Positions 2,935-43,566 are shown, counted from the first letter of the stretch. The stretch is 43,784 bases of DNA from Candidatus Micrarchaeota archaeon (GCA_043805855.1 JAZDHP010000008.1:1-43784), one strand, 5' to 3'. Numbers and translations: made by a program. Notes: a model not told the origin generated them from the letters alone.

Positions 2935-3192
2935 TGCAACCGCCGGGATCTTCGAGCATTTCGGAAGTTTCTTTTCCCGAAGGCTTTTCTTTTCTAAAGA
3001 AAAGGCTTATCGAACCCGGACCGCAAGCTTTTTTCGGAAAACCGTTTTTTCGTTCAGTTTTCGATCGAGCCTTTTCGCATTTGCTTCTGGGCAAATGACA
3101 TCGCAAATGCGAAGTCAAATGCCGGCCAGGCATTTGCGATTACAAAAAGGCTCGCTTGGAAAGCTCGAATCATACCACTAGACCACGGCTGC
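2935..3192 (-). tRNA. tRNA-Gly(UCC) with two introns: 37/38 (3030-3156, 127 nt) and 59/60 (2949-3008, 60 nt)
   Basis: Acceptor GCAGCCG/CGGTTGC-A; anticodon arm CGAGC TTTCCA|A GCTTG; T arm CCGGG TTCGAT|T CCCGG. BHB helices TTTC/GAAA and TTCG/CGAA. Confidence 0.92.
3076..3141. repeat. Double-hairpin element (family 2), divergent copy nested in the tRNA-Gly anticodon intron
   Basis: gCATTTGC-ttctgg-GCAAATGac ... agtCAAATGCC-ggcca-GGCATTTGcgatt; same frame as copies at 3275, 9623 and 43492. Confidence 0.6.
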
Positions 3193-3244
3193 GCGTCTGT
3201 TAATTTATTTGACAGTATTAAAGATAAAAACTTAAGCTATCACG

Positions 3245-3347
3245 TTTTTCTTTGGGGTTGCAAGACCTTTCTTTGAGCACAAAGCAAAGCTTTGTAACTC
3301 AGACAAAAACTGGCGTTTTTGCTGATTCGTAAAAAGAAAGGGATTAC
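3245..3347. repeat. Free-standing family-1 palindrome carrying a family-2 insert (3275-3327)
   Basis: tttttctttggggttgcaagacctttcttt[insert]...aaaaagaaaggg aligns with the tRNA-Pro intron tttttctttgggactgaaagacttttcttttt...aaaaagaaaagg; insert nearly identical to 9623-9676. Confidence 0.75.
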
Positions 3348-3349
3348 TA

Positions 3350-3524
3350 TGGGGCCACCGAGATTCGAATTCCCTAAAGCGCTTATTCGCCTTTCAATAC
3401 CTAAAGATAAAAATATTTAATTTTTCTTTGGGACTGAAAGACTTTTCTTTTTATAAAAAGAAAAGGCTTTCCTCGGGTCACGGCCACCCCAAGGCCGTAG
3501 GATGCCAGGCTACCCCATGGCCCC
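3350..3524 (-). tRNA. tRNA-Pro(GGG) with 102-nt intron at 53/54 (3370-3471)
   Basis: Acceptor GGGGCCA/TGGCCCC-A; anticodon arm CGGCC TTGGGGT GGCCG; T arm CCGAG|TTCGAAT CTCGG; near-BHB with one mismatch; usual archaeal position downstream of rpoN. Confidence 0.92.
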
Positions 3525-3618
3525 ATTTGCGTATTATTTAAGAGAAAGAGAAGTTTAAAATTCCAAGCGATAGGCTTAAAAAAAAAGCAGGCGTTAGCTT
3601 TGTAAGGTGAACTGTTAA

Positions 3619-3987
3619 ATGGAGAATCTTAGACGAAATTTATCCACAGTAGAAGATGTTAAAAAAGTTGAATTTAGACCTTTACGTTTAGCATTTTCAA
3701 CTACTGGCGAACAGATTAGTCCAGGTTCTAGTGGCGCACAGTTATTATTTGAATTTAAAAGGCTCAGAGAAGCAACTGTAAGAAAAACAGCAGCGAGCCT
3801 TGGACTTAAAACCGAAAGCACTGGCAGACAGGTACTGGTCTTCGATAGGAGACGTATATTCACACTTCAAGTAACTCCCGGATTAGCCAGACCTACAAGA
3901 ATGATAGTCGTTGGGGGAGACAAATACGGAAGACTTCCTGGCGAAGCACAGGAAACTATTCTAAGCTTTTTACGCGGATTCAAATAA
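3619..3987 (+). CDS. Hypothetical protein
   Basis: ATG preceded by GGTGA SD-like motif; fills an intergenic gap; weak resemblance to 14808-15233. Confidence 0.65.
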   Translation: MENLRRNLSTVEDVKKVEFRPLRLAFSTTGEQISPGSSGAQLLFEFKRLREATVRKTAASLGLKTESTGRQVLVFDRRRIFTLQVTPGLARPTRMIVVGGDKYGRLPGEAQETILSFLRGFK

Positions 3988-4011
3988 ACTAAAAACAAAA
4001 AAAATAAGAAA

Positions 4012-4045
4012 TTAGAATCTTTGGAAGTGTTTGATTTCGTCGATT
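4012..4045. repeat. 34-bp direct repeat, copy 1 (duplicate of rpoN 3' end)
   Basis: ttagaatctttggaagtgtttgatttcgtcgatt identical to 5416-5449. Confidence 0.95.
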
Positions 4046-4067
4046 TAGCCCAAAACAGGGTTTTAGT

Positions 4068-4121
4068 TGTGCATAGGGCACTATGCATAAATTTATAAAT
4101 GTGCATAGCGCAATAAGCATA
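4068..4121 (+). promoter_or_regulatory. TATA box flanked by two palindromic operator-like repeats
   Basis: tgtgcatagggcactatgcata (4068-4089), TTTATAAA (4092-4099), tgtgcatagcgcaataagcata (4100-4121). Confidence 0.6.
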
Positions 4122-5419
4122 TGGAAGAACGGCATAGGGCGCTTTTGTTTAGACAGAACCCACAATGGACTGGAGGGAAAATAGATGTGCCGGCGTTCAA
4201 ACGCGATAGCTTCGCTACTCTTAACAAATTCTTAAATTACAAACAAATAATTGCAATTATTGGCCTTCGGCGAGTGGGAAAAACCGTTCTACTTAAGCAA
4301 CTAATGAAGCAACTGAAATTGCCTGAAAACACTTGTTACGTGTCTTTTGACGATAGGGACTTTCAAAAATACGAGACGGCTTGGGAGATAATTAATTACT
4401 TTTTGCAAAAAACAGACGAAACGCAACAGCGGTTTTTGTTTCTTGATGAAATTCAGAAAGTACCTAATTGGCCGGACTTGTTGAAAACAATTTATGACAC
4501 TGAAAAAAACCTTAAAATGTTTGTATCCGGTTCCTCTAGCTTGGAGTTGAAGCAATATAAAGAAACACTTGCTGGAAGAATTCTAACTTTTCACATTCCG
4601 GTTTTTACGTTCAAGGAATTTATAAAATATCACAATTTAGAGTGGAAGATAAAAAAAGAAGATTTGATAAATGAATATGACAAAAAACTAGCGGGTAAAA
4701 AACAAGTTTACCAGGAATTGTTTCAAACCTATTTATTGAAAGGGGCATTTCCTGAGCTATTAGAAATATCTGACGAGGTATTTGTAAAGAAGTATATTTC
4801 GGAGGTTATTGATAAAATAATTGAGGATATTTCTAAGCATATTGAAAACGGCAAACAAGGAGAAATAAGCGATTTAATAGCGCTGTTATGCAAAAGCACC
4901 GGCCGGAATTTTGAACTTAACAACATAGCAGAAGTGCTGAAAATAAACCGCAACACGGCATCTCGCTATGTAAATTTGCTTGAAAAAACTTTTCTTATTA
5001 AAACAAGTTATAACTATACTAAAAGTGTAGCGAAAAAATTCAGAACAAGTAAAAAAAGTTATTCAGCGCATAGTTGCATACCCATTTCAGTATTAAACTA
5101 TCCGTTTAACGCAGTTAGTATTGATGGAAGTGACCTTGGTCATTTGGTTGAAACTGCTATAGCTAGTAATTTAAGTGAATTTTCCTTCTGGAAGCACCAA
5201 AATGATGAAGTGGACTTTGTTATTAACAATTTACCTGTAGAAATAAAGTATCAAACTAACATAAACAAAGGAGACACCGCAGGATTAATAAAATTCACTA
5301 ACAAATTCAAGAAAAAAACTGCATTGCTAGTTACTAAAGATAAAGTTGAAGAACTAAAAATAGGTGAAATAAATATCCTTGCAATTCCAGCGTGGCTTTT
5401 CCTACTTGCCTATACTTAG
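4121..5419 (+). CDS. AAA+ ATPase, AAA_14/DUF4143 family
   Basis: QNP.W N-terminus, Walker A GLRRVGKT, Walker B LFLDEIQ, SGSS, LAGR, G.FP, central HTH-like segment, C-terminal EVDF...PVEIK. Confidence 0.92.
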   Translation: MEERHRALLFRQNPQWTGGKIDVPAFKRDSFATLNKFLNYKQIIAIIGLRRVGKTVLLKQLMKQLKLPENTCYVSFDDRDFQKYETAWEIINYFLQKTDETQQRFLFLDEIQKVPNWPDLLKTIYDTEKNLKMFVSGSSSLELKQYKETLAGRILTFHIPVFTFKEFIKYHNLEWKIKKEDLINEYDKKLAGKKQVYQELFQTYLLKGAFPELLEISDEVFVKKYISEVIDKIIEDISKHIENGKQGEISDLIALLCKSTGRNFELNNIAEVLKINRNTASRYVNLLEKTFLIKTSYNYTKSVAKKFRTSKKSYSAHSCIPISVLNYPFNAVSIDGSDLGHLVETAIASNLSEFSFWKHQNDEVDFVINNLPVEIKYQTNINKGDTAGLIKFTNKFKKKTALLVTKDKVEELKIGEINILAIPAWLFLLAYT

Positions 5420-5449
5420 AATCTTTGGAAGTGTTTGATTTCGTCGATT
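5416..5449. repeat. 34-bp direct repeat, copy 2 (functional rpoN 3' end)
   Basis: Identical to 4012-4045. Confidence 0.95.
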
Positions 5450-5616
5450 AGTGGTACGTAACTTAAAAACATTCTCCTGCAGCAGTACCTCGGGTAGCCG
5501 AGCTCATCGAGTACTTTTGCTGGGTCTTGCTTTTCCATTTGTGTTTTCATGACGAAAGCGTCGATGTCTTCGGCTACTGGTTTTCCGCACGAGAAGCAAC
5601 GAACTGGTATTAACAT
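5416..5616 (-). CDS. rpoN: DNA-directed RNA polymerase subunit N (Rpo10)
   Basis: MLIPVRCFSCGK ... RYCCRRM. Confidence 0.98.
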   Translation of the reverse strand: MLIPVRCFSCGKPVAEDIDAFVMKTQMEKQDPAKVLDELGYPRYCCRRMFLSYVPLIDEIKHFQRF

Positions 5617-5654
5617 TTTTTATTATCCCTCTATTTTCGACATTTTTCAATATC

Positions 5655-6056
5655 CTATCTGTATGATTTTGTGAAACGTGCTCTTGCTTTTGGCCCCTTG
5701 AATTTCTTGGGTTCGACTCTCCTTGGGTCTTCTACGAGGAGTGAGCGGTCAAATGCTAGCATTTGCTGCTTTACAGCGTCAGGCGAACCGTGGATTTGTA
5801 ATAGCCCTTTTGCTACTGCGATGCGGCTTGCTTGTGCTTGTCCGCTGGCTCCGCCGCCGTTTACATTAACATAGATGTCGTAGGCTTCAGGGTCGTCAAA
5901 GAAACGCAGTGGCTCTTGGTAGACATCGCGTAGGAATCTAGAAGTCATTGAACTTACAGCTGTGCCGTTTACAGTGTAAGTGCCTTTGCCTGGGTTGATG
6001 GTAGCGCGTGCAATTGCTTCTTTGCGTTTTCCACGAGTTACGATTGTTTTGTTCAT
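5655..6056 (-). CDS. rps9: 30S ribosomal protein S9 (uS9)
   Basis: GKRKEAIARA, GGG..GQA.A, EPKK..GP.ARA...KSYR; ATG overlaps the L13 stop. Confidence 0.97.
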   Translation of the reverse strand: MNKTIVTRGKRKEAIARATINPGKGTYTVNGTAVSSMTSRFLRDVYQEPLRFFDDPEAYDIYVNVNGGGASGQAQASRIAVAKGLLQIHGSPDAVKQQMLAFDRSLLVEDPRRVEPKKFKGPKARARFTKSYR

Positions 6057-6469
6057 TGTGCTGACCACCCTAATGATTGCGATAATTGCCCGAGGGTAAT
6101 AAAACTTCCCTGTAGAGCTTTTGAATCTTTAACTGGCCTTGTGCCTTTCTTTGGCCCTTCGCCAATGTAAGATTTTATATTACGAAGCGCTTGTTTTCCG
6201 CGTTTTCCAGCTGGGAGCATACCCGAAATAACTTTTCTAAACAAGTAGTCTGGGCGTCGTGGCCATTTCATTGCTTTTTCTGGATTCGCGTGGTTTGTCA
6301 TTTCACGGCGTTTAGTATAAACTCTTACTATTTGCAACGCGTTGCCTGAAATCACAGCTTTTTCAATGTTGTAAATGTTTATCGTGTAACCTCGTAGTGC
6401 GTTTTTGGCACAGTAAGCCGCTAGTCTACCTGAAACGAGGCCGCTTGCATCAATTGTAATTTCTTTCAT
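6053..6469 (-). CDS. rpl13: 50S ribosomal protein L13 (uL13)
   Basis: IDA...GRLA, EKAVISG, PRRPD....ISGMLP. Confidence 0.96.
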   Translation of the reverse strand: MKEITIDASGLVSGRLAAYCAKNALRGYTINIYNIEKAVISGNALQIVRVYTKRREMTNHANPEKAMKWPRRPDYLFRKVISGMLPAGKRGKQALRNIKSYIGEGPKKGTRPVKDSKALQGSFITLGQLSQSLGWSAQ

Positions 6470-6482
6470 TCTTTTGTTCACT

Positions 6483-6833
6483 TTATGTAATTATTAAAAC
6501 GTTTTTGCCGCTTGGGTTAATTTCAACAAGTTGGTTTATTGAAATTACTTTTCCGCCAGCTTGTGTTATTTTTTCGCGCGCTTTTCCAGAAATGGAAAAA
6601 GCAGCGACTGTTGCTTTTGTTCCAGCGCCGTTTGAGAGAACTTTGCCCGGAACTAACAACGTGCCAGTTAGTTTTGTCATTTTTGAAACGTTTACCTCTA
6701 CGCGTTTTCTTGTTGGCCTCAAGAGTAACTCTGCTGCGCGTTTCCATATTGGCGCTTTGTTTTTCTTGCTACTTATTTCAAGAAACGCTATTAATTCAAG
6801 CGTTTTTCTGTTTGTCGGTCCACGTATAACCAT
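6483..6833 (-). CDS. rpl18e: 50S ribosomal protein L18e (eL18)
   Basis: APIWK, VNVSK, VPGKVL, AREKI..AGG. Confidence 0.96.
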   Translation of the reverse strand: MVIRGPTNRKTLELIAFLEISSKKNKAPIWKRAAELLLRPTRKRVEVNVSKMTKLTGTLLVPGKVLSNGAGTKATVAAFSISGKAREKITQAGGKVISINQLVEINPSGKNVLIIT

Positions 6834-6914
6834 TTTTTTCAACTCTAAATTTTATTTTAATTTTCTATTTTTTATTTATTCTTTATTTATTTTTCAACTT
6901 GTTTGAATCTTTAA

Positions 6915-7137
6915 TGCAGAGGGAGAGATTATCATGCTTTTTTTCTTTTTCCAAGGTTTTTCTTTTTTCAAAAAAGAAAAAGCTTTTGAACTCTCGAACT
7001 CCTAAGAGACAGGAACCTCAATCCTGCGCATTTAGTCATAAATACAAATTACAGTTGTTCTGTTATTGGTTTATCGCCAACTTGAGGACAACTTGTTCAT
7101 CTTTGTTTTTCTATTGACCTGGCTTTGCTACCTCTGC
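6915..7137 (-). tRNA. tRNA-Leu(GAG) with introns at 21/22 (7032-7113, 82 nt) and 59/60 (6929-6984, 56 nt)
   Basis: Acceptor GCAGAGG/CCTCTGC-A; anticodon arm CAGGA TTGAGGT TCCTG; BHB GGTC/GACT at the D-loop, relaxed motif at the T-loop; usual position between rpoD and L18e. Confidence 0.92.
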
Positions 7138-7165
7138 ATTTCACAGCGGTTAAAAGAATGCTATC

Positions 7166-7220
7166 TTTCAGTAACTTTTCTTTTGGCGACTGAAAGCACC
7201 TTTTCGCAAAAGGGGCTTTC
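7166..7220. repeat. Free-standing family-1 palindrome directly after the rpoD stop
   Basis: ctttcagt...ttttcttttggcgactgaaagcaccttttcgcaaaaggggctttc matches the architecture of the Pro, Ser and Leu(CAG) introns. Confidence 0.7.
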
Positions 7221-7222
7221 TT

Positions 7223-7924
7223 TTATAACTCTTTTTTCAACTCGTCGGCTTTTTCCCGTAGAATTGAAACTGCTTTTTGTAATATTACGGCTGGCTCTTC
7301 GCCGTTGTAACTTTCAACGTAAAAAATGTACTCTCCTTCTTTTGGAAGCACGTTAACGTTTTCTGAAATTTGGCCAATGTCAAGTTTTTCCGGGTTAGTT
7401 ACTTTGCCGTTTTCGTCAACTGCACCTGTTGGAATTGTTTTCAACGCTTCTACCTTTGAACCTTTTATCTTTAAGTCAGGGTAGTGCGCATAGCTTGCAA
7501 AGCTGTTTTGAAACTTCGCGTGTTGCTTTGCAGTGCCAATTACCGCAGTTGCTTCGAAGCGTAAGTTTTGGTTTTCTGAAAGTGCAATTATTGGAATGTG
7601 AAGCAAAGCGGGTTTTATTTTGTCGTCTGTTGATTTTAAGTCTTTCGAATAAACTATCGTCGGTCCAGTTGCCTGTAGGCTAAAAGTTACCTTCACGTCG
7701 GGAGATGCTTTGTCATCGTTTGTTAATGGTATTAACGCAAGGCGAAGTGCAAGGTATTCGTTGAACATTGCTGAGTTGTTTTCAAAAAAGGTAACTTCGT
7801 CAATTGCAAAGTTTGGAATTGAACTGTTTATTATTCTTCGAAGTGCGTTGAGCATAGGGACAGAACAGTCCTTAACGTGGTAGTAAACGCCGCTTTTGGT
7901 TTTTCTAATTTGTTCGAACTTCAT
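7223..7924 (-). CDS. rpoD: DNA-directed RNA polymerase subunit D (Rpo3)
   Basis: NALRR, AIDEV.F.EN.S, RLALIPL, G..K.HAKFQ, FYVES. Confidence 0.96.
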   Translation of the reverse strand: MKFEQIRKTKSGVYYHVKDCSVPMLNALRRIINSSIPNFAIDEVTFFENNSAMFNEYLALRLALIPLTNDDKASPDVKVTFSLQATGPTIVYSKDLKSTDDKIKPALLHIPIIALSENQNLRFEATAVIGTAKQHAKFQNSFASYAHYPDLKIKGSKVEALKTIPTGAVDENGKVTNPEKLDIGQISENVNVLPKEGEYIFYVESYNGEEPAVILQKAVSILREKADELKKEL

Positions 7925-7930
7925 GGTTGT

Positions 7931-8359
7931 CTACACCCTACGGCCTCTTTTTCCGCCTGGCCTCTTTGTAGTGTCAGTTGGAATTGGAGTAACATCTTCA
8001 ATTTTACCAATGCGTAAACCTGAACGCGCTAATGCTCTTATAGCTGCTTGTGCGCCTACACCTGGAGTTTTAGAACCGTGGCCGCCCGGTGCGCGTACAC
8101 GTACGATTACACCCACTACGCCTCTTTCTTTTGCTTTTTCGCTTGCTTTGAAAGCAGCTTGCATTGCCGCGTATGGCCCGCCTTCTTCCCGGTCGTTTTT
8201 AACAATCATTCCACCGCTTGCGGTTGTGATTGTTTCAGCTCCGCTGATGTCCGTAATTGTAATTATAGTGTTGTTTTTCGAAGAGTAAACGTGCGCAATG
8301 CCCCATTTACCTTCTTTTGGTGCAACTACATTTCTTGGTGTAAATCTACTTTCAGCCAA
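7931..8359 (-). CDS. rps11: 30S ribosomal protein S11 (uS11)
   Basis: [34 protein letters not shown]. Confidence 0.98.
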
Positions 8360-8858
8360 CGGTGTTCACCTGTTGATTTTTCAATTCAATAACATGATTA
8401 TACCAGTTAATTTCATTTTCTTCACGGAATTTAACTAGATAAGACGGCGCAGTTACCCTCACTCCATTTATTGCAATGTGACCATGGGTAACAAATTGCC
8501 TGCTTTGTAAAATTGTACTTGCCATTCTCTTGCGCGTAACTATAGTTTGTAACCTTCTCTCAAGAATACTGCGAGTGTCAAGTGCAAGAACATCATCAAG
8601 AGTTGCATTAGCAACTAAGAATGACTTAATGCGGTTTAGTAAAAGTTCAGTGCGTTGCTCGATGTTTTTTCCTTTTCCAGATTGTAAACGGCGAGCTTCA
8701 CGGCGGATTTTACGTAGAATTGTTTTCATTCTCCATAACTCGCGCATGTTTTTCAAGCCGTATTCGTCGACTAGCTTACGTTCTTCTTTAATGCGGCTAG
8801 CGTCCCATTGTCTTTTAGGCGCTTCGAATTGCTTCCTAAGTTTCACTGGACTTCCCAT
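8352..8858 (-). CDS. rps4: 30S ribosomal protein S4 (uS4)
   Basis: MGSP start, [25 protein letters not shown]. Confidence 0.97.
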
Positions 8859-8859
8859 A

Positions 8860-9501
8860 TTACTTCTTTGCCTCGTCCTTTGTTCCAGCAGATGCCGGTG
8901 CAATTGATTTGCGTACGACTCCAACAGTTAAACCGCTTCTTCCAGTTGTACGGTTGTGTTGACCGCGTACTTTTTGTCCAATTGAATGTCTCCAGCCAAT
9001 CCACGAGCGAGTGTCTTTCTCGCGTTGGATATCTTGCTTTGTTTGGAAAATTAAATCAGTACCAAGTAAATGTTTGTCTTCGCCAGTGTCAATATCTTTT
9101 CTCCGGTTAAGCATGAAAGCAGGAATTCCAGCGGTTTTTGGATTCTTTATAATGTCTTCAATGCTGTTCAACTGTTCTTCAGTTAAATCTCCCACAAGTG
9201 CTTTTGGGGATATTGAAAGTTTAAGTAGAATTGCGTTTGAAAGAGCGTTGCCAAGCGTGTGGCCAATTCCCTTTACTCTGCGTAGAGCTTCTGATAAATA
9301 GTAGTGGCCGTCCATGTCTTTTCCAACTAGACGAATTACTCCGCGGAAGTCTCCCGAAGCAGATGGCCTTTTCTTTAAAACAGATTGATTTTGTGAAGGC
9401 GCAGCTAAGACTTTTTTCTTGTCCTTATTGTGATCCTTTGAAGGTTTAACGTCTTTGCCGTCTTTTGCTTTGTCGTTCTTTTCCAAAACTTTTTTCACCA
9501 A
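8860..9501 (-). CDS. rps13: 30S ribosomal protein S13 (uS13) with Lys-rich N-terminal extension
   Basis: LNRRKD..TG...HL, G.RH..G.KVRGQ..RTTGR. Confidence 0.96.
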   Translation of the reverse strand: MVKKVLEKNDKAKDGKDVKPSKDHNKDKKKVLAAPSQNQSVLKKRPSASGDFRGVIRLVGKDMDGHYYLSEALRRVKGIGHTLGNALSNAILLKLSISPKALVGDLTEEQLNSIEDIIKNPKTAGIPAFMLNRRKDIDTGEDKHLLGTDLIFQTKQDIQREKDTRSWIGWRHSIGQKVRGQHNRTTGRSGLTVGVVRKSIAPASAGTKDEAKK

Positions 9502-9547
9502 CGTGCGGACCGCGAACTAAAAGTTCGCAACCTCGCTTAATTACGAG

Positions 9548-9848
9548 CGCCGGGACTGAGAAATTCGGAAAACCCTTCAGTTCCTATGCGCTATAAAATA
9601 ACAATTTAACCCTTTTCTTTTTGAGCACAAACCACTGGTTTGTGACTCAGACAAAAACCTTTGGTTTTTGCTGATTGGGTTGAAAGACTTTTTTCTTTTC
9701 GCAAAAGAAAAAAGGGTTTCGTTCGAACTCAGGAGCCCTTACGGGCACAAGCTTTCTGCGAGCGTGAGGTCTACAGTTTTACTGTCACCATAACAAGCAC
9801 TCGTCTGGATAATTCCAGGCCTGCGCATTACCACTCTGCCATCCCGGC
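9548..9848 (-). tRNA. tRNA-Ser(GGA) with introns at 37/38 (9754-9812, 59 nt) and 59/60 (9562-9721, 160 nt)
   Basis: Acceptor GCCGGGA/TCCCGGC-G; anticodon arm CAGGC CTGGAA|A GCTTG; long variable arm; T arm CTGAG TTCGAA|T CTCAG with BHB helix TTCG/CGAA; usual position upstream of S13. Confidence 0.92.
9623..9676. repeat. Double-hairpin element (family 2) inside the tRNA-Ser T-loop intron
   Basis: gagcacaaaccactggtttgtgactcagacaaaaacctttggtttttgctgatt; differs from 3275-3327 almost only at the hairpin apices. Confidence 0.85.
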
Positions 9849-9944
9849 ATGAGAGCGAAAGAAACACAATGTATTTCCAACTTCGCCAATCTTTGCTTCC
9901 TAGAGCGTATTTAATAGTAAGAAACTGGTTTAAAAAGGCTACTA

Positions 9945-10859: not shown

Positions 10860-10907
10860 ATTTGTAAAAATAGAGAAAAAGGAAAAGAAAAAAGAGTAGG
10901 TTAGGAG

Positions 10908-11069
10908 TTAGATTGGTTCTAGGTGCATTGCGTTGCACTTTTTGGCCTTGCCTTTACTGTCCGTTACTTCGACGAAGTTTTTGTCAATTAGTTTCGTAAT
11001 TGTGACAGTTTCTCCTGTTTTGCGTCCTTTTGTTTTAATACATTTTCTTCCTACTTGGATTGAAGACAT
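10908..11069 (-). CDS. rpl14e: 50S ribosomal protein L14e (short, 53 aa; not in ORF track)
   Basis: Manual translation MSSIQVGRKCIKTKGRKTGETVTITKLIDKNFVEV...CNAMHLEPI; conserved position between cmk and cbf5. Confidence 0.9.
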   Translation of the reverse strand: MSSIQVGRKCIKTKGRKTGETVTITKLIDKNFVEVTDSKGKAKKCNAMHLEPI

Positions 11070-11701: not shown

Positions 11702-11726
11702 TTTTTAACACAACAAACTAAGACAA

Positions 11727-12206: not shown

Positions 12207-12271
12207 AAAATTTCACCAATAACAAAAGTACAACTAGGAGTTTTAAAAAAGCCATGGTTTGTTGCGAAGAG

Positions 12272-12595: not shown

Positions 12596-12674
12596 ATAAA
12601 ATATTCACCAAATAGTTTAGCTAGTTAATAAAATTTAGAACAGAATATCTTTGGAAGAAAAGGGTTTAACTACG

Positions 12675-13202: not shown

Positions 13203-13247
13203 TTTTTATTTTACCTTGATTATCTTTACTTTTGTTTTTTCTCTTTT

Positions 13248-30472: not shown

Positions 30473-30611
30473 AGCCCCCGACGAGAATAGTTCAAACTTT
30501 TTCTTTTTCCAAGGTTTCTTTTCCCAAGGCTTTTCTTTTCTAAAGAAAAGGCTTTTGAACTCGCGACCTTTTGCTTACCATGCAAACGCTCTACCACTGA
30601 GCTACAGAGGC
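30473..30611 (-). tRNA. tRNA-Thr(GGU) with about 67-nt intron at 59/60 (30487-30553)
   Basis: Acceptor GCCTCTG/CGGGGGC; D arm GCTC/GAGC; anticodon arm TTTGC ATGGTAA GCAAA; T arm GCGAG TTCAAA|T CTCGT; helix TTCA/TGAA with enlarged 3' bulge. Confidence 0.9.
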
Positions 30612-33826: not shown

Positions 33827-33927
33827 GAAAATAAACCTCTTTCAAATATTGTAATTTACGGTTTTAAAAACACTTGGGAAACGCAACATAAAGATAGAAA
33901 AGCACCAAAAGAGAAAAAGAATAGCAC

Positions 33928-36346: not shown

Positions 36347-36457
36347 ATTATGGGGGCAACTAGTTTAAAAAAAGATAAACTTGTCAGAAAAACAATTGAT
36401 TGAGCAATAGCGATTAAATACTTTAACGCTTAACTGTAAATTAAGGTGTTGCGCGAA

Positions 36458-37978
36458 ATGAAAAAGATCATTCTGATTATTGTAGTTTTATTGATTGTTT
36501 TTGCCGCGCCGGTTGTGCTGCACTTGTGCCCGCCAGCTGGACCGTGGCCCAATCCACCATGGTGTACTAAAGGAAACATAGGCGCAATTCCGCCAATCAA
36601 TCTTCCTTCTAACTCACAATTAGGCAATGTTTCAAACAATTTGATTAACGAAATTGCAATAGCAACAAACCAACCAATTACTGGCGTTGTTAAAATCATG
36701 GCTCCACTTGGAGCTAGCCGCGTCGTTGCGAAAGCCGGAAATAATAGTTTTGAATTGGCTAAATTTGACGAACTTGAATTTAAGGGAAGTTTAACACTAC
36801 AAAACGGCGCGACATTGTCGCTTTCCGCATTTGACGCTGCAAATAATAGTTTAGGTTCTGGGAGTGCCGTATTTGGAAAAGAAGTTTACAGTTACATTTC
36901 TCCACAGGGAAGCGGTCGCGAGTTGATAAAAGGATATACAATTACCGCTTGTCACTACTGCAGCGTTTCGTTTACCCGCGGAAATTACCTGCCCAAGGTA
37001 GACTCAGCGTACGATTTAATGAAAAGTGAGGGCACAAATTGGATTAACATAAACCCAGTTTGGTTTTTAACCGACTTTAAAGCAAGTGACTTGCGCCCAA
37101 TTTACCGCGAGGAATACGGACAAGATGGATGGAGTGGCTGGATGCATGCGACTATTTCAGACGATGAACTGCGAGAGTTAATTCGCAAAGCACACGCCAA
37201 GGGACTTAAAGTTTTTCTAATGCCGCACTTGTCAACTTTAAACTGGAGTGAAAACGTACCCGGAAAAGGAAGCCTTGCACCTACGGACGTAACTGGATTT
37301 TTTGAAAACTACACTAAATTCCAATTACACTATGCTAAAATTGCACAGGAAGAAGGCGTTGAGCTGTACAGCGTTGGCAATGAACTAGATTCAGTTACCG
37401 ACGACGGCAATCAAATTAACAGCGGGTACAATAAAACCGAAAAGTGGCGAAATATAATCAGCGCAGTGCGCGGTGTGTACAACGGCAAAGTTACTTACTC
37501 TTGTTCTTGTACTCAAGCAGATAACCAGTGTACGCCTGAGCAAATCAAATTCTGGGATGCGCTTGACTACATTGGATTCGAATGGTACGTTCCACTGACG
37601 AGTAGTACAACCACTACAGTGAGTGAATTGACCAACTACGCATCTAGCATTTTATCAAACAAAGTAATACCCTTGTCAAACAAGTACGGAAAGCAAGTTA
37701 TCTTCACAGAGTACGGCTGGGAAGCGAAGCCTTACAGCTGGGCGAAAACCTACGGCGGCGGCGGGCAAGGCAATTTTAATAAGGAACACGCAGCAGTCGC
37801 CTACGAAGCGATGTTCGAAGCTTTGAAAAACACGCCACAAGTAGCTGGAATGTTCATCAACACATGGCCGCTAGGCGACGAAAAAGACATGACCTGGATA
37901 AAAGACTACAACGGCCTCGACACCCGCTACTCAATCCTCGAAGCAGAAATTGCCAAATGGTACAGTTGGTACAAGTAA
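36458..37978 (+). CDS. Membrane-anchored glycoside hydrolase, GH113-like TIM barrel
   Basis: N-terminal TM; GLKV.L.PH, YA.IA, G.EL and F.E.G candidate catalytic motifs, FWD.LD.IG...Y.PL. Confidence 0.75.
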   Translation: MKKIILIIVVLLIVFAAPVVLHLCPPAGPWPNPPWCTKGNIGAIPPINLPSNSQLGNVSNNLINEIAIATNQPITGVVKIMAPLGASRVVAKAGNNSFELAKFDELEFKGSLTLQNGATLSLSAFDAANNSLGSGSAVFGKEVYSYISPQGSGRELIKGYTITACHYCSVSFTRGNYLPKVDSAYDLMKSEGTNWININPVWFLTDFKASDLRPIYREEYGQDGWSGWMHATISDDELRELIRKAHAKGLKVFLMPHLSTLNWSENVPGKGSLAPTDVTGFFENYTKFQLHYAKIAQEEGVELYSVGNELDSVTDDGNQINSGYNKTEKWRNIISAVRGVYNGKVTYSCSCTQADNQCTPEQIKFWDALDYIGFEWYVPLTSSTTTTVSELTNYASSILSNKVIPLSNKYGKQVIFTEYGWEAKPYSWAKTYGGGGQGNFNKEHAAVAYEAMFEALKNTPQVAGMFINTWPLGDEKDMTWIKDYNGLDTRYSILEAEIAKWYSWYK

Positions 37979-37997
37979 AACAAACAAAGGTATTTCA

Positions 37998-38618
37998 ATG
38001 GATGGACTTGCAATTGAATTGGCAACACGCGCTGGCGAACTCTATACTCAACTAGTTTCACTTTTAGGTTTAACCTCGGCTAACGTGCTTGTCCTTGCAA
38101 TTGCAATAGCAATTTACGCAAGTATAGTTGGAACGTTTTACCTACATTTATCCAAAAAAGTTCTTTATGAAGTAAAAACCAACAAACCAAAAGGATTTTT
38201 ACGCGCTTACTTTGACGCATTAATTTTTATCTTAGAATACACGATTTTGTTCCCGCTAATTTCCTTCCTTTGGTTCGTCATTTTATCAATTTTACTATAC
38301 CTACTATCGCAAAAGATGTCGCTCGATACTATTTTCATGCTTTCAATTTCAATAGTTGCTGCAATTCGCATATGCGCATATTACAGCGAACACGTTGCAG
38401 TAGATTTAGCAAAACTACTTCCACTCACTCTGCTCGCGGTTTTACTAGCCGATGCAAGTACACTAACGCAAGTTACAATACAAACAAAAATATTAGAACT
38501 ATTAACAAGTTTGCCACGCTTCGTACCTTACTTGGGAATTGCAATTGCCGTTGAGTGGATTCTACGCTTGGCACTCGGAGTAAAACACTTTTTATTTCCA
38601 GCTAGTCGTAAAGTATAA
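37998..38618 (+). CDS. Hypothetical multi-pass membrane protein
   Basis: About five TM helices; R..AYY.E..A.DLAKLLP...L motif. Confidence 0.75.
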   Translation: MDGLAIELATRAGELYTQLVSLLGLTSANVLVLAIAIAIYASIVGTFYLHLSKKVLYEVKTNKPKGFLRAYFDALIFILEYTILFPLISFLWFVILSILLYLLSQKMSLDTIFMLSISIVAAIRICAYYSEHVAVDLAKLLPLTLLAVLLADASTLTQVTIQTKILELLTSLPRFVPYLGIAIAVEWILRLALGVKHFLFPASRKV

Positions 38619-39584
38619 CCTCGTTGCATTATATGGTTTAGAAATTTCTCCTTCAGCGTAAAGTAAATCTACAAGTTGTTGAACTTGTTCTATTTCTCTT
38701 TCAGATATTTTCATTTTTAATAGAGGCAAAGTTGAAGCAACCGCGATTTTTTCATCGAGGTTAGTGTAACGGCCGTAAATGCGCTTTGCTTCTGTTTCGT
38801 TCCTTGCAATAAATTGTTCTGCAGATTCAAATGCTGCAATTATTTTCTTAACCTTTGCTTGGTTTTTTGATGAAAATTTATTTGAAATTGCCATTATTGC
38901 GCCAACCGGCGCGTATTTCATAACTGCTCCGCGCGTGTGGTTTTGCACAACTCGTCCAATTCCAGTTACAACTGCAGACGCATGGAACGGTTCAGTGCTT
39001 ACAATTGCATCTACACTACGCGAGTCAAGCGCAGCTAGTTGTAAATTATAATTCACTGGAACAAAAGTTACATTTGTCCAGTTGTTTACCTTTGCTATTT
39101 TTCCAGACCACATTTTCCAGTTAGAGCCAGGTGGAATTCCAATCGTGGCTTTAGATAAATCACTTAAAGTAGTAAACGAAGAATTTATCGCGACAACCGT
39201 ATAAGAATAAGGCTGTTCTGGAGTTTCCATAATTAGTCCAATTGCTTTGAACTGTTCTGGCGAGCGAATTTCGCTTGCAATCATTGTTGGAAAACCCGTG
39301 ATGGTTTCAATATCAATATCTCCCGAGAGTAACGCAGCGTGAATTTCATTAGTAGCTGAAAAGTTGTAAACTTCAATTTCAATTCCCTGTTCTGCGAAAT
39401 ATCCTTGATCAAGCGCAACGAAAAAAATAGCAGAAGGAGTTATTCCAGGCACAGTACCAAAACGTACTTTTTCACTCTCAATTGATTTAGGTAAAAACAT
39501 TACCGCGACAATTAAAACTATTACTGCTACCACTAAAGCAAATACAAACAAACTCCGTTTCTCGACCATTTTGTTAAACCACAA
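38592..39584 (-). CDS. ABC transporter substrate-binding protein, NMT1/THI5-SsuA-like
   Basis: N-terminal anchor, FVA...GYF..QGI..E, ALLSGDID, AL....VDA....EP. Confidence 0.85.
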   Translation of the reverse strand: MWFNKMVEKRSLFVFALVVAVIVLIVAVMFLPKSIESEKVRFGTVPGITPSAIFFVALDQGYFAEQGIEIEVYNFSATNEIHAALLSGDIDIETITGFPTMIASEIRSPEQFKAIGLIMETPEQPYSYTVVAINSSFTTLSDLSKATIGIPPGSNWKMWSGKIAKVNNWTNVTFVPVNYNLQLAALDSRSVDAIVSTEPFHASAVVTGIGRVVQNHTRGAVMKYAPVGAIMAISNKFSSKNQAKVKKIIAAFESAEQFIARNETEAKRIYGRYTNLDEKIAVASTLPLLKMKISEREIEQVQQLVDLLYAEGEISKPYNATRLYFTTSWK

Positions 39585-39649
39585 TAACCAAACGGCAGGC
39601 GTTACGCTTTAATAGTTTGTTGTCAATAAAAAACAACAGGTGCATTTAA

Positions 39650-40369
39650 GTGAATCTTGGAGAGAAATTGGAACACCTTGGGCTTAACGCAAACGAAGCT
39701 AGCGTATACTTAGCGATGCTGGAAACTGGCACTTCGCCAGCTGGAAAAATTGCAGTTAAAGCTGGGATTAACCGCACGTTAGTTTACAATGTGTTGAACT
39801 CACTTATCAAAAACGGACTTGCAAGTTATGAAATTAAGAATAACATTCGTTACTTTACCGCTGCTCGGCCTGAGAGAATTTTGTGGTGGATTAACCAGCG
39901 TAAGGAACTTGCAGATAGTCTTGTCGGTGAGTTAAATGCAATTGCTCCAAAAACAATTGATGAAACTTCAGAAATTTTCACCGGTATAGAGGGAGTAAGC
40001 ACTGCAATTGATTTACTGTTTGAAACTGGCGAAGAGTGGTACACGATTGGTTCAACTGGACTTCTCCACGAGATTTCTCCGTTGCTTTTTAACAGCTATA
40101 CTAAAAAGAGAGTGAAGAAGAAACTGTGGCGTTGGATTATAACAACTCGAGATAAGCGGAAGATAATGGAAAAGCAAGAGTATTCACACATCCGTTATCT
40201 TCCAAAGGAATATGTTGGACCGGTTTCAATCACAATTTGTGGTGACATTGTAATGATCTTAACGCCTTACCAGCAACAGCCAACCACTTTTCTCATTAAG
40301 AGTCGAGATGCTTCGCGCGGGTTCATGAACTACTTTAAACTACTGTGGAAAATAGCGAAAAGCGAATAA
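39650..40369 (+). CDS. TrmB-family transcriptional regulator
   Basis: LGL..NEA.VY..ML..G......IA...GINR..VY.VL.SL...GL wHTH; G.EG effector-binding domain. Confidence 0.88.
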   Translation: MNLGEKLEHLGLNANEASVYLAMLETGTSPAGKIAVKAGINRTLVYNVLNSLIKNGLASYEIKNNIRYFTAARPERILWWINQRKELADSLVGELNAIAPKTIDETSEIFTGIEGVSTAIDLLFETGEEWYTIGSTGLLHEISPLLFNSYTKKRVKKKLWRWIITTRDKRKIMEKQEYSHIRYLPKEYVGPVSITICGDIVMILTPYQQQPTTFLIKSRDASRGFMNYFKLLWKIAKSE

Positions 40370-40384
40370 CAAACACACAATTAA

Positions 40385-41218
40385 CTATGCTAACAAATTC
40401 TGTGGCTTCCCATTTCTCCACTTTACTAGATTTTGTACAAACATTTTGTCGCCGATTAGAAAAGATTCTGGATTCTTCCAAGCCATGTGCGGCGTCGTTA
40501 AAGTGTTTTTCAAAATTGTTTTAGAACCTGGGTCAAGATCAATAGCTGCTCCTGCCAGCTTGCCGCTTTCAAGAGCATTTTTCAGCGCCTCGCCGTTAAC
40601 TAGCCCTTCGCGGCTCGGATTTATCAAAAAGGCACCTTGTTTTATCATTTCAAATTCTTTCTTTCCAATGAAACCCCGCGTGCCATCATTTAATTCTAAG
40701 TGAAGCGAAACAACATCACTTTCTTTCAACAATTTTACCAGTGGCACTTGTACCCTTGATTTCTGTTGTCGATCCCAGGCAATTACTTTCATCCCAAGTT
40801 TGTTCGCCTTTTCAGCAACCGCTTGGCCAATTCTCCCCAGCCCAATAACGCCAAGAGTTTTGCCTTTTGGCTGGCAGAGTTTTTGCAACATTGTAATCGT
40901 CCACTCGGCAACCGCAGAAGTACAATAGCCCGGGCAATAACTTATCTCAACGCCGTGCACCTTAGCCGCACTGACGTCAACCCAATCGCAACCAGTTGCA
41001 TAAACTGAAACGAATTTTAGTTTAGGAAGTGAATTGAAAAAATTAGCAGTTAATTGAATGACTCTTTTTGGAGTTGCAAGCACAGCTTCGGCGTCGCGGC
41101 ACTTTTCAATTAAATCCGCTTCACTTTTAACAACCTCATTGTAAAACGTAGCTGGGCCAATTAGTTTCAATTGCCGCTCAGTAAAATCTTCCTTTGCAAG
41201 GAAAACAACTACTTTCAT
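40385..41218 (-). CDS. D-isomer-specific 2-hydroxyacid dehydrogenase
   Basis: AVAE, GKTLGVIGLGRIG, SD.VSLH, LIN.SR, GAA.D, TPH.AW. Confidence 0.92.
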   Translation of the reverse strand: MKVVVFLAKEDFTERQLKLIGPATFYNEVVKSEADLIEKCRDAEAVLATPKRVIQLTANFFNSLPKLKFVSVYATGCDWVDVSAAKVHGVEISYCPGYCTSAVAEWTITMLQKLCQPKGKTLGVIGLGRIGQAVAEKANKLGMKVIAWDRQQKSRVQVPLVKLLKESDVVSLHLELNDGTRGFIGKKEFEMIKQGAFLINPSREGLVNGEALKNALESGKLAGAAIDLDPGSKTILKNTLTTPHMAWKNPESFLIGDKMFVQNLVKWRNGKPQNLLA

Positions 41219-41230
41219 ATTGCAAATTGC

Positions 41231-41677
41231 CTATTTTTTCTTCTTTTTGGAGTTAGCACTTTTGTTTAGAAATGAAGGCAGTACAAAACTAGCTATGCCT
41301 AGTACAAAAATCACCGGCGTAATGAAAATATTATTATCGCCAGTTAACAAATATAAATTTGATACACTTATTTCCTGGAACCACGCAATTGCCAATGGAA
41401 AGAAAGCATACAGCAAACCTGCAAGCACTAAACCGGTACGATTTACACCTGCAACAACGGCCTTCTTGCCAAAAATATAACCGACAACTACAAAAATTGG
41501 AACAAAGGGAACTATCAATACCGACAGCATTATCCCTAGTTTTTCAAAGAAGGGCAACAAATTATACGGATCCGTCATATCAGTTCCACGCGGAATCAAA
41601 AGCATCAGAAGAACGTACAACGCCATCAAAAGTGTAGGAACGCAAGCGTAATGAAACCAAGAATTTTTATCACACAT
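41231..41677 (-). CDS. Hypothetical four-TM membrane protein
   Basis: Hydrophobic segments and basic C-terminus. Confidence 0.65.
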   Translation of the reverse strand: MCDKNSWFHYACVPTLLMALYVLLMLLIPRGTDMTDPYNLLPFFEKLGIMLSVLIVPFVPIFVVVGYIFGKKAVVAGVNRTGLVLAGLLYAFFPLAIAWFQEISVSNLYLLTGDNNIFITPVIFVLGIASFVLPSFLNKSANSKKKKK

Positions 41678-41755
41678 AGATAAAGAAACAGCTAAAGAGT
41701 ATAAAAAGTATTAGGTGTGGCCAAAGAAAACTTAAACTAATATAAAAAAGAAAAA

Positions 41756-42077
41756 TGCAGGAGGAGAGATTTTCACTTAGAGGGAAATTTCTTTTTTCCC
41801 AAGGCTTTTTTCTTTCTAAAAGAAAAAAGGCTTTTGAACTCGAGAAACCAATTTCTTTTCTTCCACTCAAAGGCTTCTTTTCTTTCGCAAAGAAAAGAAG
41901 GGTTTGCTCTCGAACCCCTAAGGGACCAGACCCTGAATCTGGCGCATTTAATCGAAAGCCCTTTTTCTGTAGAAAAATGGCTTTCAGCCCGAAAAAGACA
42001 CTTACGTTCTTTTGGGATTGAAAGACCTTTTCTTTCCAAGAAAAGGGCTTTCCTTGACCAGGCTTTGCTACCCCTGC
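41756..42077 (-). tRNA. tRNA-Leu(CAG) with three introns: 21/22 (41948-42053, 106 nt), 53/54 (41839-41906, 68 nt), 59/60 (41770-41832, 63 nt)
   Basis: Acceptor GCAGGGG/CTCCTGC-A; anticodon arm CCAGA TTCAGGG TCTGG; BHB helices GGTC/GATT, CGAG/CTCG and TTCA/TGAA. Confidence 0.92.
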
Positions 42078-42162
42078 ATGATTAATTTATACTAACAAAG
42101 GTAATTGAAGCTTTTCTTTTGCAGTTATTGTAATTAAATACTTTCCCAGCTTATTTTCTTTC

Positions 42163-43227
42163 ATGAAGTTGCGTCCGCCGAAGATATTGAAACTTAACCC
42201 ACGTAAAACGAGGAAACACGAGCGAGAGGTTATGCGCGATGTAGCTGTTGCGCGGCGCTATGTTGAAAGAGCCGGCGGTGAAGAAGCGGTTCAAAGGCAA
42301 ATGGAAGAAACTGCAAGGCAGTTTGGCGGAAGTTATGGTTTGCCGAGGTTTGCTGCGAAAACTCCAGTTGATAGAAAAGAGTATTTTGAAACTGAAGTAA
42401 AGATGCGCGGTATGGTTCCAGTTGGAAAAGCTTATCAAACTAGAGACGGCGTTTTTCTAATGCCTGGCGGTTTGGCAAAGGCAATTGTTCCAATTCCAAA
42501 ACCGTTTCGCAAAGCGTTTAGAATCGCACCGCACTCTACTTCAACTTTTGCACGCGCTGGGATAAACCTCGGCGATAGTCAAAGCACTTTTCAGCGGCAG
42601 TTATCGCGGCGGGTTTTGCCTGCTACGATGGAAGTTTTCATTCACAACATGGCGTCGATTCCAGTTAGGATGCGAAACGGCGACCCGTGTCGTTTGTTGA
42701 ACATTGATGAAATACGCAGCAAGCGCGGAGATCCAAAATTAATCAAAACTTCACCACGTACAACCGCAACAGAAACTTCGCTTGTTAATTTACACGTTGG
42801 CGATGAGGTTGTTGAAGTTAACCACGATGCGCTACCTTTAGTAAAAATTGGAGACCAACACATTCGCTATATTGACCCAAGAGCGCGTAACTTTGCTTCG
42901 CAGTTTACAACGCGGGCGTTTAACAAACTGCTAATAAAAGCCGGTCAATTTTTCGTCATTTCAACTAGAGAACACATGGCGATTCCCATAAATCACGTCG
43001 GTTGGGTTCAGTCAAGTAGAGATAATCTAATGCACAGCACGGCAAAACTAGCGCACGGCGGTTGGGAGGGAAAAATGGCGCTGGAATTCCTCGCATTGCG
43101 AGATCATACTTTGAAACCCGGCGATAAAGTAGCTTGGCTAACTGTCCACCCTACTGCAAACAGCAAGGGAGTTTATACTGGTCGCTATCAGAGACAAGAA
43201 AGCGCTGCGCCAAAGAGCGAAAAATAG
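42163..43227 (+). CDS. Divergent dCTP deaminase/dUTPase-fold protein, probably two tandem domains
   Basis: STFARAGI in the first half; F..ISTRE...IP....G.V, H.G.EG...LE, L.PG..VA.L, Y.GRYQ.Q in the second half. Confidence 0.65.
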   Translation: MKLRPPKILKLNPRKTRKHEREVMRDVAVARRYVERAGGEEAVQRQMEETARQFGGSYGLPRFAAKTPVDRKEYFETEVKMRGMVPVGKAYQTRDGVFLMPGGLAKAIVPIPKPFRKAFRIAPHSTSTFARAGINLGDSQSTFQRQLSRRVLPATMEVFIHNMASIPVRMRNGDPCRLLNIDEIRSKRGDPKLIKTSPRTTATETSLVNLHVGDEVVEVNHDALPLVKIGDQHIRYIDPRARNFASQFTTRAFNKLLIKAGQFFVISTREHMAIPINHVGWVQSSRDNLMHSTAKLAHGGWEGKMALEFLALRDHTLKPGDKVAWLTVHPTANSKGVYTGRYQRQESAAPKSEK

Positions 43228-43279
43228 CTGACGCTATTAATAATAAAATAAAAAAAGCAAAAAAAGAAACTATAGCTTC

Positions 43280-43438
43280 TTATTTGCCTTTTGCTTCTTT
43301 CTTCCTTGCGCGCTTCGGGCGTAGGTTTGGGTACATGCACTTGCGGCATCGTACTGCGCTTTTTGGATTGCGCGTTTTGCACTTCTTGCAAATCAAGACG
43401 CCTAAGATATATCGTTCTGCAATTGGAAATTTAGCCAT
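43280..43438 (-). CDS. rpl40e: 50S ribosomal protein L40e (not in ORF track)
   Basis: Manual translation MAKFPIAERYILGVLICKKCKTRNPKSAVRCRKCMYPNLRPKRARKKEAKGK. Confidence 0.95.
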   Translation of the reverse strand: MAKFPIAERYILGVLICKKCKTRNPKSAVRCRKCMYPNLRPKRARKKEAKGK

Positions 43439-43463
43439 TGAATTATAACCACGGATTAACTTA

Positions 43464-43566
43464 CACTTCGCCTCACGAAGTGAAAGGCCTTCAGCACAAG
43501 CCCTTAGCTTGTGACTGAGTCATCGAGCAAAGCTCGATGCCTATAACGAAGCACATCGCTTCGTTA
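43464..43566. repeat. Array of four short hairpins; the middle two (43492-43540) form a family-2 element
   Basis: cacttcg/cgaagtg, cacaagc/gcttgtg, catcgagc/gctcgatg, taacgaagc/gcttcgtta. Confidence 0.75.

Follow-up and report, generated by a model that had tools for sequence, protein, structure and literature searches.

The stretch analysed here, referred to below as the window, is the 43,784-nucleotide (nt) sequence JAZDHP010000008.1:1-43784 of a Candidatus Micrarchaeota archaeon (GCA_043805855.1), which belongs to a metagenome-assembled genome (MAG) of 1.03 Mb in 67 contigs (G000 in what follows). It holds three copies of a small element, the double-hairpin element, in which two self-contained hairpins are set in the fixed frame TGAG-hairpin 1-ACTCAG(A/T)-hairpin 2-CTGA, 51-57 bp in all. 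The copy at 9622 lies antisense within the insert of a tRNA gene, that at 3274 within a T/A-rich hairpin repeat with a minus-strand tRNA gene on either side (context read by eye), and that at 43491 within a 'family Y' repeat downstream of a gene, where it separates the two hairpins of the repeat (Table 1). A covariance model (R1), built from an alignment (A1) of 21 genome copies, was scanned over the window with filters off; it recovers these three places with E-values of 1e-22 or lower, and nothing else in the window exceeds 11 bits. The three window copies belong to the training set of R1, and support from outside that set comes from a further copy at C44:6490-6544 (56.7 bits) and from R1 matches in other genomes. 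The preliminary description of this DNA had listed four copies. Those at 3274, 9622 and 43491 are members and the one at 3076-3141 is not, and four was also an undercount, since the genome has 22 double-hairpin and three four-hairpin places.

Table 1. Features of the window that concern the double-hairpin element and its hosts.
Feature	Position	Strand	Basis
tRNA-Gly(TCC) with three inserts (~3153-3069, 3065-3025, 3009-2950)	2935..3192	-	ARAGORN after insert removal
Claimed first copy, not a member: unique structured stretch in tRNA anticodon-stem insert	3076..3141		partial R1 match
Double-hairpin element, 52 nt, TAAC variant	3274..3325	+	R1 61.3 bits
Host of 9622 copy: long T-loop insert of tRNA gene	9562..9721	-	alignment A4; tRNA read by eye, no tRNA finder
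Double-hairpin element, top-scoring window copy, 53 nt	9622..9674	+	R1 70.7 bits
Left terminal word TGAG, complement of CTCA in central word	9622..9625	+	alignment A1; DNA fold
Hairpin 1: 8-bp Watson-Crick stem (starts CA, ends TG), 3-nt loop	9626..9644	+	alignment, covariation, fold
Central word ACTCAGA	9645..9651	+	A1 columns 27-33 invariant or nearly; fold
Hairpin 2: 8-bp stem, 3-nt loop	9652..9670	+	alignment, covariation, fold
Right terminal word CTGA	9671..9674	+	alignment A1
Host of 43491 copy: 'family Y' two-hairpin repeat	43456..43568	-	motif scan
Double-hairpin element, 53 nt, left word TAGG	43491..43543	-	R1 65.2 bits

From the alignment, it is clear that the layout is a dyad, the left hairpin on the bottom strand being equivalent to the right hairpin on the top strand, and that each half-unit consists of a 4-nt word, one extra base, a stem and the complementary 4-nt word. 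In the central word of the 9622 copy, CTCA pairs with the left end and TCAG with the right end, the two overlapping by 3 nt, and the first and last A are the extra bases of hairpins 1 and 2, respectively. The one-base asymmetry that had been described is seen at each hairpin foot, and the layout of both hairpins bears out the proposal of a structure-maintained element with an inverted-doublet build like that of repetitive extragenic palindromic (REP) sequences. Likewise as described, the 3274 copy has TAAC in place of TGAC, which disrupts the first pair of hairpin 1, and in the first stem a G-C pair in one of the 3274 and 9622 copies is replaced by C-G in the other. Single-stranded DNA folds give the three window copies z-scores between -3.2 and -7.0.

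Pattern scans of the whole genome gave the first copies beyond the window, about twenty of them. Run over G000, R1 finds 22 double-hairpin places at 53.8 bits or more, namely the 21 training copies and the new one on contig C44. Three four-hairpin loci (C66:6256-6361, C59:9625-9729 and C31:253-360) appear in addition as paired, abutting weaker R1 matches. Read by eye, these variants have perfect outer halves, TGAG-hairpin-ACTC and AG(T/A)-hairpin-CTGA, with a second two-hairpin unit exactly in the centre, so that their frame (hp, hairpin) is TGAG-hp-ACTCTGG-hp-ACGC(G/A)A-hp-AT(C/T)GCAG(T/A)-hp-C(T/A)GA; no free copy of the inner unit is found in G000. A restriction-like cut at CTNAG would account for the termini of the element but was rejected, since the inner unit of these variants sits at CT^CAG or CTC^AG and not at C^TCAG. 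The four-hairpin copy on C31 stops 1 nt before the 5′ end of a tRNA gene, that is, in leader or promoter space.

The stems covary, as had been claimed from far fewer copies. Standard pairs fill 95.3% of the 340 cells of A1, and in 15 of the 17 pairs both partners have changed; values as high were not obtained in any of 500 column shuffles, and sliding the partners by 1-3 columns brings pairing down to 30-43.5%. Thus, further copies and covariation, the two things by which the preliminary description proposed to test its element, have both been found, in the genome census, in other genomes and in the stems. G-T pairs make up 8 of 593 stem pairs in 38 copies and mostly adjoin the loop. The commonest loops are three-base GAA or TTC closed by C-G (for example, at loci L023, L030, L035 and L044 of the related genome G001 and on contigs C29 and C10 of G000). 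Since d(GCGAAGC) is an unusually stable DNA mini-hairpin, such loops would fit a role as folded DNA.

Strong covariation is also what speaks for a functional structured RNA, either a protein-binding motif or a small intron of tRNA, rRNA or mRNA precursors. Many copies do lie in RNA that is transcribed but discarded, such as tRNA introns and leaders, and a splicing endonuclease of broad specificity is described for Micrarchaeota in PMC3239211. Such an RNA is, however, hard to reconcile with the near absence of G-U pairs and with the presence of both orientations relative to transcripts, copies being antisense to a Whirly-like gene and to the tRNA at 9622 and sense in a phosphorylase-family gene of genome G010. 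The inserts in these two conserved genes are multiples of three and open in frame, whereas a 55-nt copy in another MAG (L082) breaks a transposase-like frame. No Rfam family matches the copies above chance; an overlap with mir-4679 at 3243-3311, at 24.5 bits against a gathering score of 88, was dismissed as chance. A bulge-helix-bulge intron was rejected as well, since in RNA folds of three host transcripts, and by hand, the element ends are not placed in 3-nt bulges on either side of a 4-bp helix; what these folds show is the hairpins lengthened by 4 bp with a 1-nt bulge.

On account of the few G-T pairs, the two orientations, the kept frame and the lack of an Rfam family or a bulge-helix-bulge motif, we interpret the covariation as the signature of a DNA hairpin working on either strand, or of hairpin-templated repair, and not of RNA. 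One and the same stem is found with loops that are reverse complements (TTC/GAA and TTT/AAA), and two copies in G001 with near-identical flanks differ solely in two fully compensated pairs; these sequence features would lean towards repair. A functional RNA is very unlikely, and of the ssDNA-or-RNA reading offered earlier, the RNA option is disfavoured by the G-T count, the two orientations and the in-frame copies.

Empty sites in related genomes have been used to find out what the element does to its host sequence. The genus set consists of four genomes, G000 to G003, with completeness values of 92, 71, 91 and 62%. Copy C10:4381-4434 lies inside the Whirly-like gene of G000 on the opposite strand (Pfam Whirly, E 2.4e-10), and the orthologs in G001, G002 and G003 are shorter by exactly 18 residues at this site (alignment A2); their DNA lacks exactly 54 bases, from TGAG to CTGA, with flanks of equal length (alignment A3). 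The 53-nt block at 9622 is missing from the orthologous tRNA insert in the same three genomes (alignment A4), in which the exon blocks are conserved, the insert is variable and a run of T's followed by TTGGG is unbroken; the gap in A4 was misplaced by MAFFT, and this empty site was read by eye. In G010, the phosphorylase-family gene carries a 51-nt sense copy that adds 17 residues, and neither G008 (90% identical) nor G004 has it.

Filled and empty sites also occur side by side among repeats. In a run of tandem units of ~52 nt on contig C2, the element is present in one unit and missing from the following one; the hairpin GGCCACGCC^TGGCC contains it at C45:23377 but is uninterrupted at window 557-601; and family Y has both filled and uninterrupted copies in G000, the latter being the empty sites for the 43491 copy. 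At the orthologous position of that copy, synteny ends directly after the upstream gene in G002 and G003. In L082, an Altiarchaeota-labelled MAG, the 55-nt copy at 201-255 breaks a transposase-like frame, which may be of IS256 type (…YGIEVSAEM / VSRITDK…), and its removal restores the frame (by eye). For a 57-nt copy at C56:5628 in a TrmB-like frame, the sole relative found in G001 is 29% identical and has a gap of fitting size, too weak a match for this site to be counted as empty. Among DNA contigs drawn from three metagenome runs, short contigs of the runs X1 and X2 span the filled Whirly site, others share the first hairpin only, and none skips the element. Among RNA runs, none is listed as containing the Whirly locus.

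The occupied sites thus comprise introns and flanks of tRNAs, other hairpin repeats and genes for proteins, and both orientations occur. Taken together, the exact empty sites, the two orientations and the Watson-Crick stems identify a DNA-level insertion element and not a functional RNA; the element is a mobile, non-autonomous insertion. The Whirly-like gene itself (C10:4057-4794, minus strand) encodes a single-strand-binding-type protein with a long Q/T/P-rich N-terminal extension and is kept in 9 of the 12 genomes of the family.

The junctions follow a simple rule: either the element is preceded by an A, identical to its last base, or it is followed by a T, identical to its first. This holds for 44 of 46 insertions, and for 35 of 37 when look-alike flanks are collapsed, against a genome background of 0.527 (p ~3e-8); shifting the test by 1, 2 or 3 bases leaves 21, 16 and 11 of 37. 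Position -1 (A in 25 and T in 11 of 41 sites) is the only biased position before the left end. The right flank leans to GGCC-type hairpin arms, with G at +2 in 22 and C at +4 in 28 of 41 sites, many of which come from repeat families and are not independent. The filled and empty sites, checked for target duplication as had been proposed, reveal exact insertions with at most one redundant base. A 'TA' target or a 3-nt TGA duplication was rejected, since neither is seen at the empty sites and the lengths of the in-frame inserts would be incompatible with them.

We consider it probable that the three true copies are small non-autonomous DNA insertion elements moved as folded single-stranded DNA (ssDNA) by an enzyme acting in trans. 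The top strand ends in TCAG-(A/T)-hairpin-CTGA and the bottom strand in TGAG-(T)-hairpin-CTCA, so that each end could work like the right end of an IS200/IS605 element, with the guide words TCAG (top) and TGAG (bottom) set against the final words CTGA and CTCA. On either strand, cleavage would follow the terminal A and joining would take place 3′ of an A in single-stranded target DNA, often beside another hairpin stem, which would explain both the A-type and the T-type flanks. The enzyme would not be a recognisable Y1 transposase within the genus. Such a selfish element might persist where it does little harm, that is, in introns that are spliced out, between genes, and in frame in tolerant protein loops, where it would be translated.

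Since the preliminary description had suggested inverted REP doublets recognised by HUH transposases, we have searched for such a partner. Palindrome-associated transposable elements (PATEs) are terminal-only derivatives of IS200/IS605, a family that moves through a circular single-stranded intermediate and is biased to the lagging-strand template. In this alternative, the element would be REP-like or PATE-like, or would resemble a REPIN, in which two REPs are combined, and a Y1 HUH transposase, either the REP-associated RAYT or the IS200/IS605 TnpA, would move it. Much of the build agrees with it: there is one extra-helical base near the hairpin foot, the two units form an inverted doublet, the target duplication never goes beyond one base, and the 4-nt word 5′ of the foot complements the terminal 4 nt, as described for IS200/IS605 right ends in PMC6006769. 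Y1_Tnp (PF01797) is also present in the order, in 17 of 61 relatives. These are, however, 3 of the 7 genomes with the element and 14 of the 54 without it, so the family is not linked to the element, and none of the four genus genomes, which have the most copies, gave a match to Y1_Tnp; the control genomes matched. The TnpB marker PF07282 is likewise found in 20 of the 61 relatives and in none of the four. No gene flanked by the motif was found, no lone left or right half that could flank one is found in G000 outside the known copies, and no target tetranucleotide is conserved. In the account given in PMC6006769, Archaea have the IS200 subclass only and no RAYT classes. A Y1 transposase is thus an unlikely mover, and the RAYT/TnpA partner that the preliminary description proposed to look for has not been found.

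The search for other enzymes was no more productive. None of the four genus genomes matches rve, IS110 or Resolvase. DDE_Tnp_1 has one match each in G002 and G003 and none in the copy-richest genomes, G000 and G001; Phage_integrase matches two frames in G000 and one in G003, none of them near a copy; and the other HUH or rolling-circle families PF04986, PF02407 and PF01446 match neither G000-G003 nor the control genomes, so that this negative carries no weight. Among 136 frames of at least 110 residues lying within 1.5 kb of copies at 29 loci, there is none of a transposase or recombinase family, and the genes that neighbour the copies at these loci are housekeeping genes.

Spread without any enzyme was weighed as well. 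Here, replication template switching at quasi-palindromes and gene conversion among the host repeats would jointly multiply the element and preserve its perfect stems. The one-base identity at 44 of 46 junctions fits microhomology; the reverse-complement loops on one stem and the compensated-only differences of the near-identically flanked G001 copies would be natural outcomes, and composite copies have spread along with their host repeat. Template switching would not be expected, however, to give base-exact termini in more than 40 insertions into unrelated sequence, two unique protein genes among them. The same frame is also kept in distant lineages whose stems are different. We therefore regard this explanation as quite unlikely.

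Several observations weigh against the preferred reading, movement as folded ssDNA by a trans-acting enzyme. A conserved target word of 4-5 nt, as in IS608, is not seen at the 41 sites, which have just A/T at the junction, and since no enzyme was found, the case for a single-strand, HUH-like step comes solely from how the element is built. The genus MAGs are incomplete (62-92%) and repeats often remain unassembled, so a partner gene may have escaped assembly. Three G001 loci have their flanks in common, the elements of two of them being identical and that of the other one different by four bases (two compensated pairs), and many copies are inside other repeats that themselves multiply; some spread must therefore have been as a passenger, and the insertion counts are not all independent. 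Over eight pairs of closely similar copies, stem changes are divided equally into single uncompensated and compensated ones (6 each). Finally, 9 of the 22 G000 copies have lengths divisible by three regardless of setting, and translation of the in-gene copies is predicted from frame and length only.

A bolder version of the mechanism can be envisaged. If the ends were joined with one TGA, they would read CTGAG, the complement of the central CTCAG, so that a circle would be a perfect dumbbell. It is possible, though rather doubtful, that DPANN archaea have an undescribed DNA-moving route in which either strand folds into two foot-tagged hairpins, a dumbbell circle could form, and a structure-specific enzyme, possibly a protein of the host rather than a transposase, cuts behind the terminal A and pastes the element 3′ of A near hairpins. 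If true, this would define a class of mini-transposon that is independent of transposase or uses a new enzyme, and that lives in tRNA introns and in frame in essential genes.

The distribution of the element is patchy. At E<=0.01, R1 matches 7 of the 61 relatives: G000, its congeners G001 (~16 places), G002 (3-4) and G003 (3), G010 of another genus, G026 of another family and, weakly, G045. A broader draw from the phylum gave 3 positive genomes of 151. The exact-frame pattern, scanned over one genome per species for 185,579 species, has 24 loci, of which 13 are in two Micrarchaeota MAGs, 3 in one archaeal MAG, 4 in Altiarchaeota-labelled and 4 in bacterial genomes. When 12 of these were folded, all 8 archaeal loci proved to be double hairpins, of a different stem family, and none of the 4 bacterial loci did. 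Viral contigs hold no exact match to the pattern. That the frame is constant across distant lineages and the stems are different points to a recognised sequence. G010 also has a solitary single-hairpin unit of 28 nt, TCAG-hairpin-T-CTGA (C41:465-492, L033), which suggests that a single foot-tagged hairpin is the basic module.

Among known systems, REP doublets and IS200/IS605 ends come nearest in build, Rickettsia palindromic elements (RPEs) in the way genes are entered, and mitochondrial double-hairpin elements in overall kind. REP units are described as short palindromes with a 4-nt word at the foot, often in inverted doublets, many per genome and mostly intergenic (PMC3733652, PMC6006769). 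Like REPs, bacterial interspersed mosaic elements (BIMEs) and REPINs, the element has a foot word, inverted doublets, many copies and, at times, a place inside genes. The two REPs of a REPIN, however, pair into one long hairpin, whereas here each hairpin is self-contained and the stems are unrelated; the GTAG/CGTC tag of REP systems is not in the element, whose words are TGAG, CTCAG and CTGA; and REP/RAYT systems are bacterial with a single-copy RAYT, as a rule flanked by the repeats, in contrast to an archaeal host with no RAYT found (0 of 4 genomes) and stems that vary greatly within the genome. According to PMC3733652, CGTC-tagged repeats 'apparently lack a dedicated transposase'.

For the right end of IS200/IS605 elements, PMC6006769 describes pairing of the terminal four nucleotides with a guide tetranucleotide that lies 5′ of the hairpin foot, and movement is single-stranded. 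The element shares the subterminal hairpins of ~20-25 nt, the match of guide to final word and the lack of target duplication. It differs in having two right-end-like ends, one per strand, with no target word at a left end, no full-length tnpA/tnpB partner found in G000-G003 and a total length of just 51-57 bp. RPEs enter unrelated protein genes in frame and are read through (PMC10969869), and the inserts in the otherwise intact conserved genes (Whirly-like +18 and phosphorylase +17 residues, with translation predicted) resemble them. RPEs, however, are ~150 bp with a conserved peptide, whereas most copies of the shorter element are non-coding and its two inserted peptides differ, coming from opposite strands and different stems.

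Hairpin elements in Allomyces, sponge and fungal mitochondria consist of two adjacent hairpins, tens of bp long, in introns, variable regions and intergenic regions without flanking duplication, and an RNA route was once proposed for them because flanking duplications are lacking (PMC2800124, citing Paquin et al. 2000). They are alike in kind in their adjacent hairpins, lack of duplication and presence that varies between close species; they belong to eukaryote organelles and have no sequence relation to the element, the comparison with those of Allomyces being made via a citing paper. Judged by titles, the literature on 'double-hairpin elements' concerns eukaryotes, mostly mitochondrial genomes, and none of it archaea, and other literature searches returned only papers on CRISPR, on MITE (miniature inverted-repeat transposable element) censuses or on bacterial REPs, with no archaeal description. 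The element is small, non-autonomous and multicopy like a MITE, but it lacks the usual terminal inverted repeats (TIRs) and its duplication is at most one base (at least 2 bp in MITEs). The MITE census of 8220 archaeal genomes used TIR-based tools (PMC11602168), and such a census would probably miss this element. Thus, the element fails the defining tests of each known system: it has no RAYT or GTAG, no target word or tnpA, no conserved peptide, and no TIR with duplication.

DPANN genomes are tiny and believed to be subject to strong reduction. In this one, nevertheless, a selfish 54-bp insert is present in ~25 copies along with other hairpin families. Base-exact insertion without the usual duplication, and with none of the searched transposase families in the two copy-richest genomes, makes for a mobilising activity that can be tested. 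The copies further split tRNA introns, sit in leaders and add 17-18 residues to proteins, so gene callers and tRNA finders will misread such loci. Since presence or absence varies between species of one genus, the element could be used to mark strains in groundwater metagenomes. Covariation of the strength expected of a textbook RNA arises here in a DNA element, which calls for caution in reading covariation elsewhere. What the present analysis contributes is the genome-wide census, the covariance model, three clean orthologous empty sites, the junction rule, the G-T count, the flip-flop of loops and the negative transposase survey. It leaves the REP-like build of the preliminary description standing, the HUH partner not found and the RNA reading disfavoured.

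The stretch at 3076-3141, given as the first copy in that description, is a different structure. Only its second hairpin matches R1 (model positions 28-49, 11 bits, E 0.043), its centre has 13 bases where the family has TC, and its minimum-energy fold pairs 3074-3084 with 3103-3113, so that the claimed first hairpin is not formed. No second copy was found in the genome by blastn-short. With a partial match, a different fold and no second copy, it is not a member of the family.

It lies in the first of the three inserts of the tRNA-Gly(TCC), which interrupt the anticodon stem, variable region and T-loop, respectively. With the three inserts removed, 4248 of 6048 boundary variants are recognised as tRNA-Gly(tcc) by ARAGORN, which makes no call on the uncut sequence, and standard finders run on the window missed this gene. 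At window ~3335-3560 on the minus strand, the 3′ part of a second tRNA (…TTCGAATCTCGGTGGCCCCA) can be read by eye, with an insert directly after the 5′ strand of the T-stem. An A/T box AAAGATAAAAA followed by TTTTTCTTTGGG occurs twice within window 3200-3440 (by eye), in the insert of the second tRNA and upstream of the tRNA-Gly, and the T/A-rich 'family-1' unit may carry promoter-like sequence. The sole Rfam-called tRNA of the window, at 30550-30611 (minus strand; 35 bits, 62 nt against a 71-position model), is followed by a T/A-rich family-1 hairpin.

Other repeat families accompany the element. Family Y is a two-hairpin repeat, CTTAACGAAGC-loop-GCTTCGTTAAGGCCTTACAC-loop-GTGTAAGTTAAC, present at window 43456-43568 and at at least 15 other G000 loci (for example, C5:57975, C10:42116 and C32:74), and insertions of the double-hairpin element into it are seen at two positions, 6 nt from each other. 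The tandem units at C2:12000-12300 (~52 nt each) read GGTGAAGTGTTTGGTTGCAGGGGGTTA AAGGGCC-loop-GGCCCTTTGC, one interrupted by the element and the next intact. Family X, GGTCTCAA^AGGCC-loop-GGCCTTT, often stands behind genes (G000 C45:6751, C12:13582, C29:47583, C66:6256 and C44:6490); the copy at C45:6751 has the direct repeat ACGCTAG on its two sides, and on contig C65 of G001 a family X-like unit behind a tRNA is followed by a duplicate of the last 17 bases of that tRNA.

Two further loci of G000 adjoin copies. A RadA/Rad51 gene at C29:46083-47582 (L022:4-1500, minus strand), with an intein carrying a LAGLIDADG homing-endonuclease domain, lies next to a double-hairpin copy. A match to signal recognition particle (SRP) RNA at C1:2668-2939 (plus strand), scoring 69.7 bits against a gathering score of 96.5 and ~45 nt under the model length, lies ~105 nt from another.

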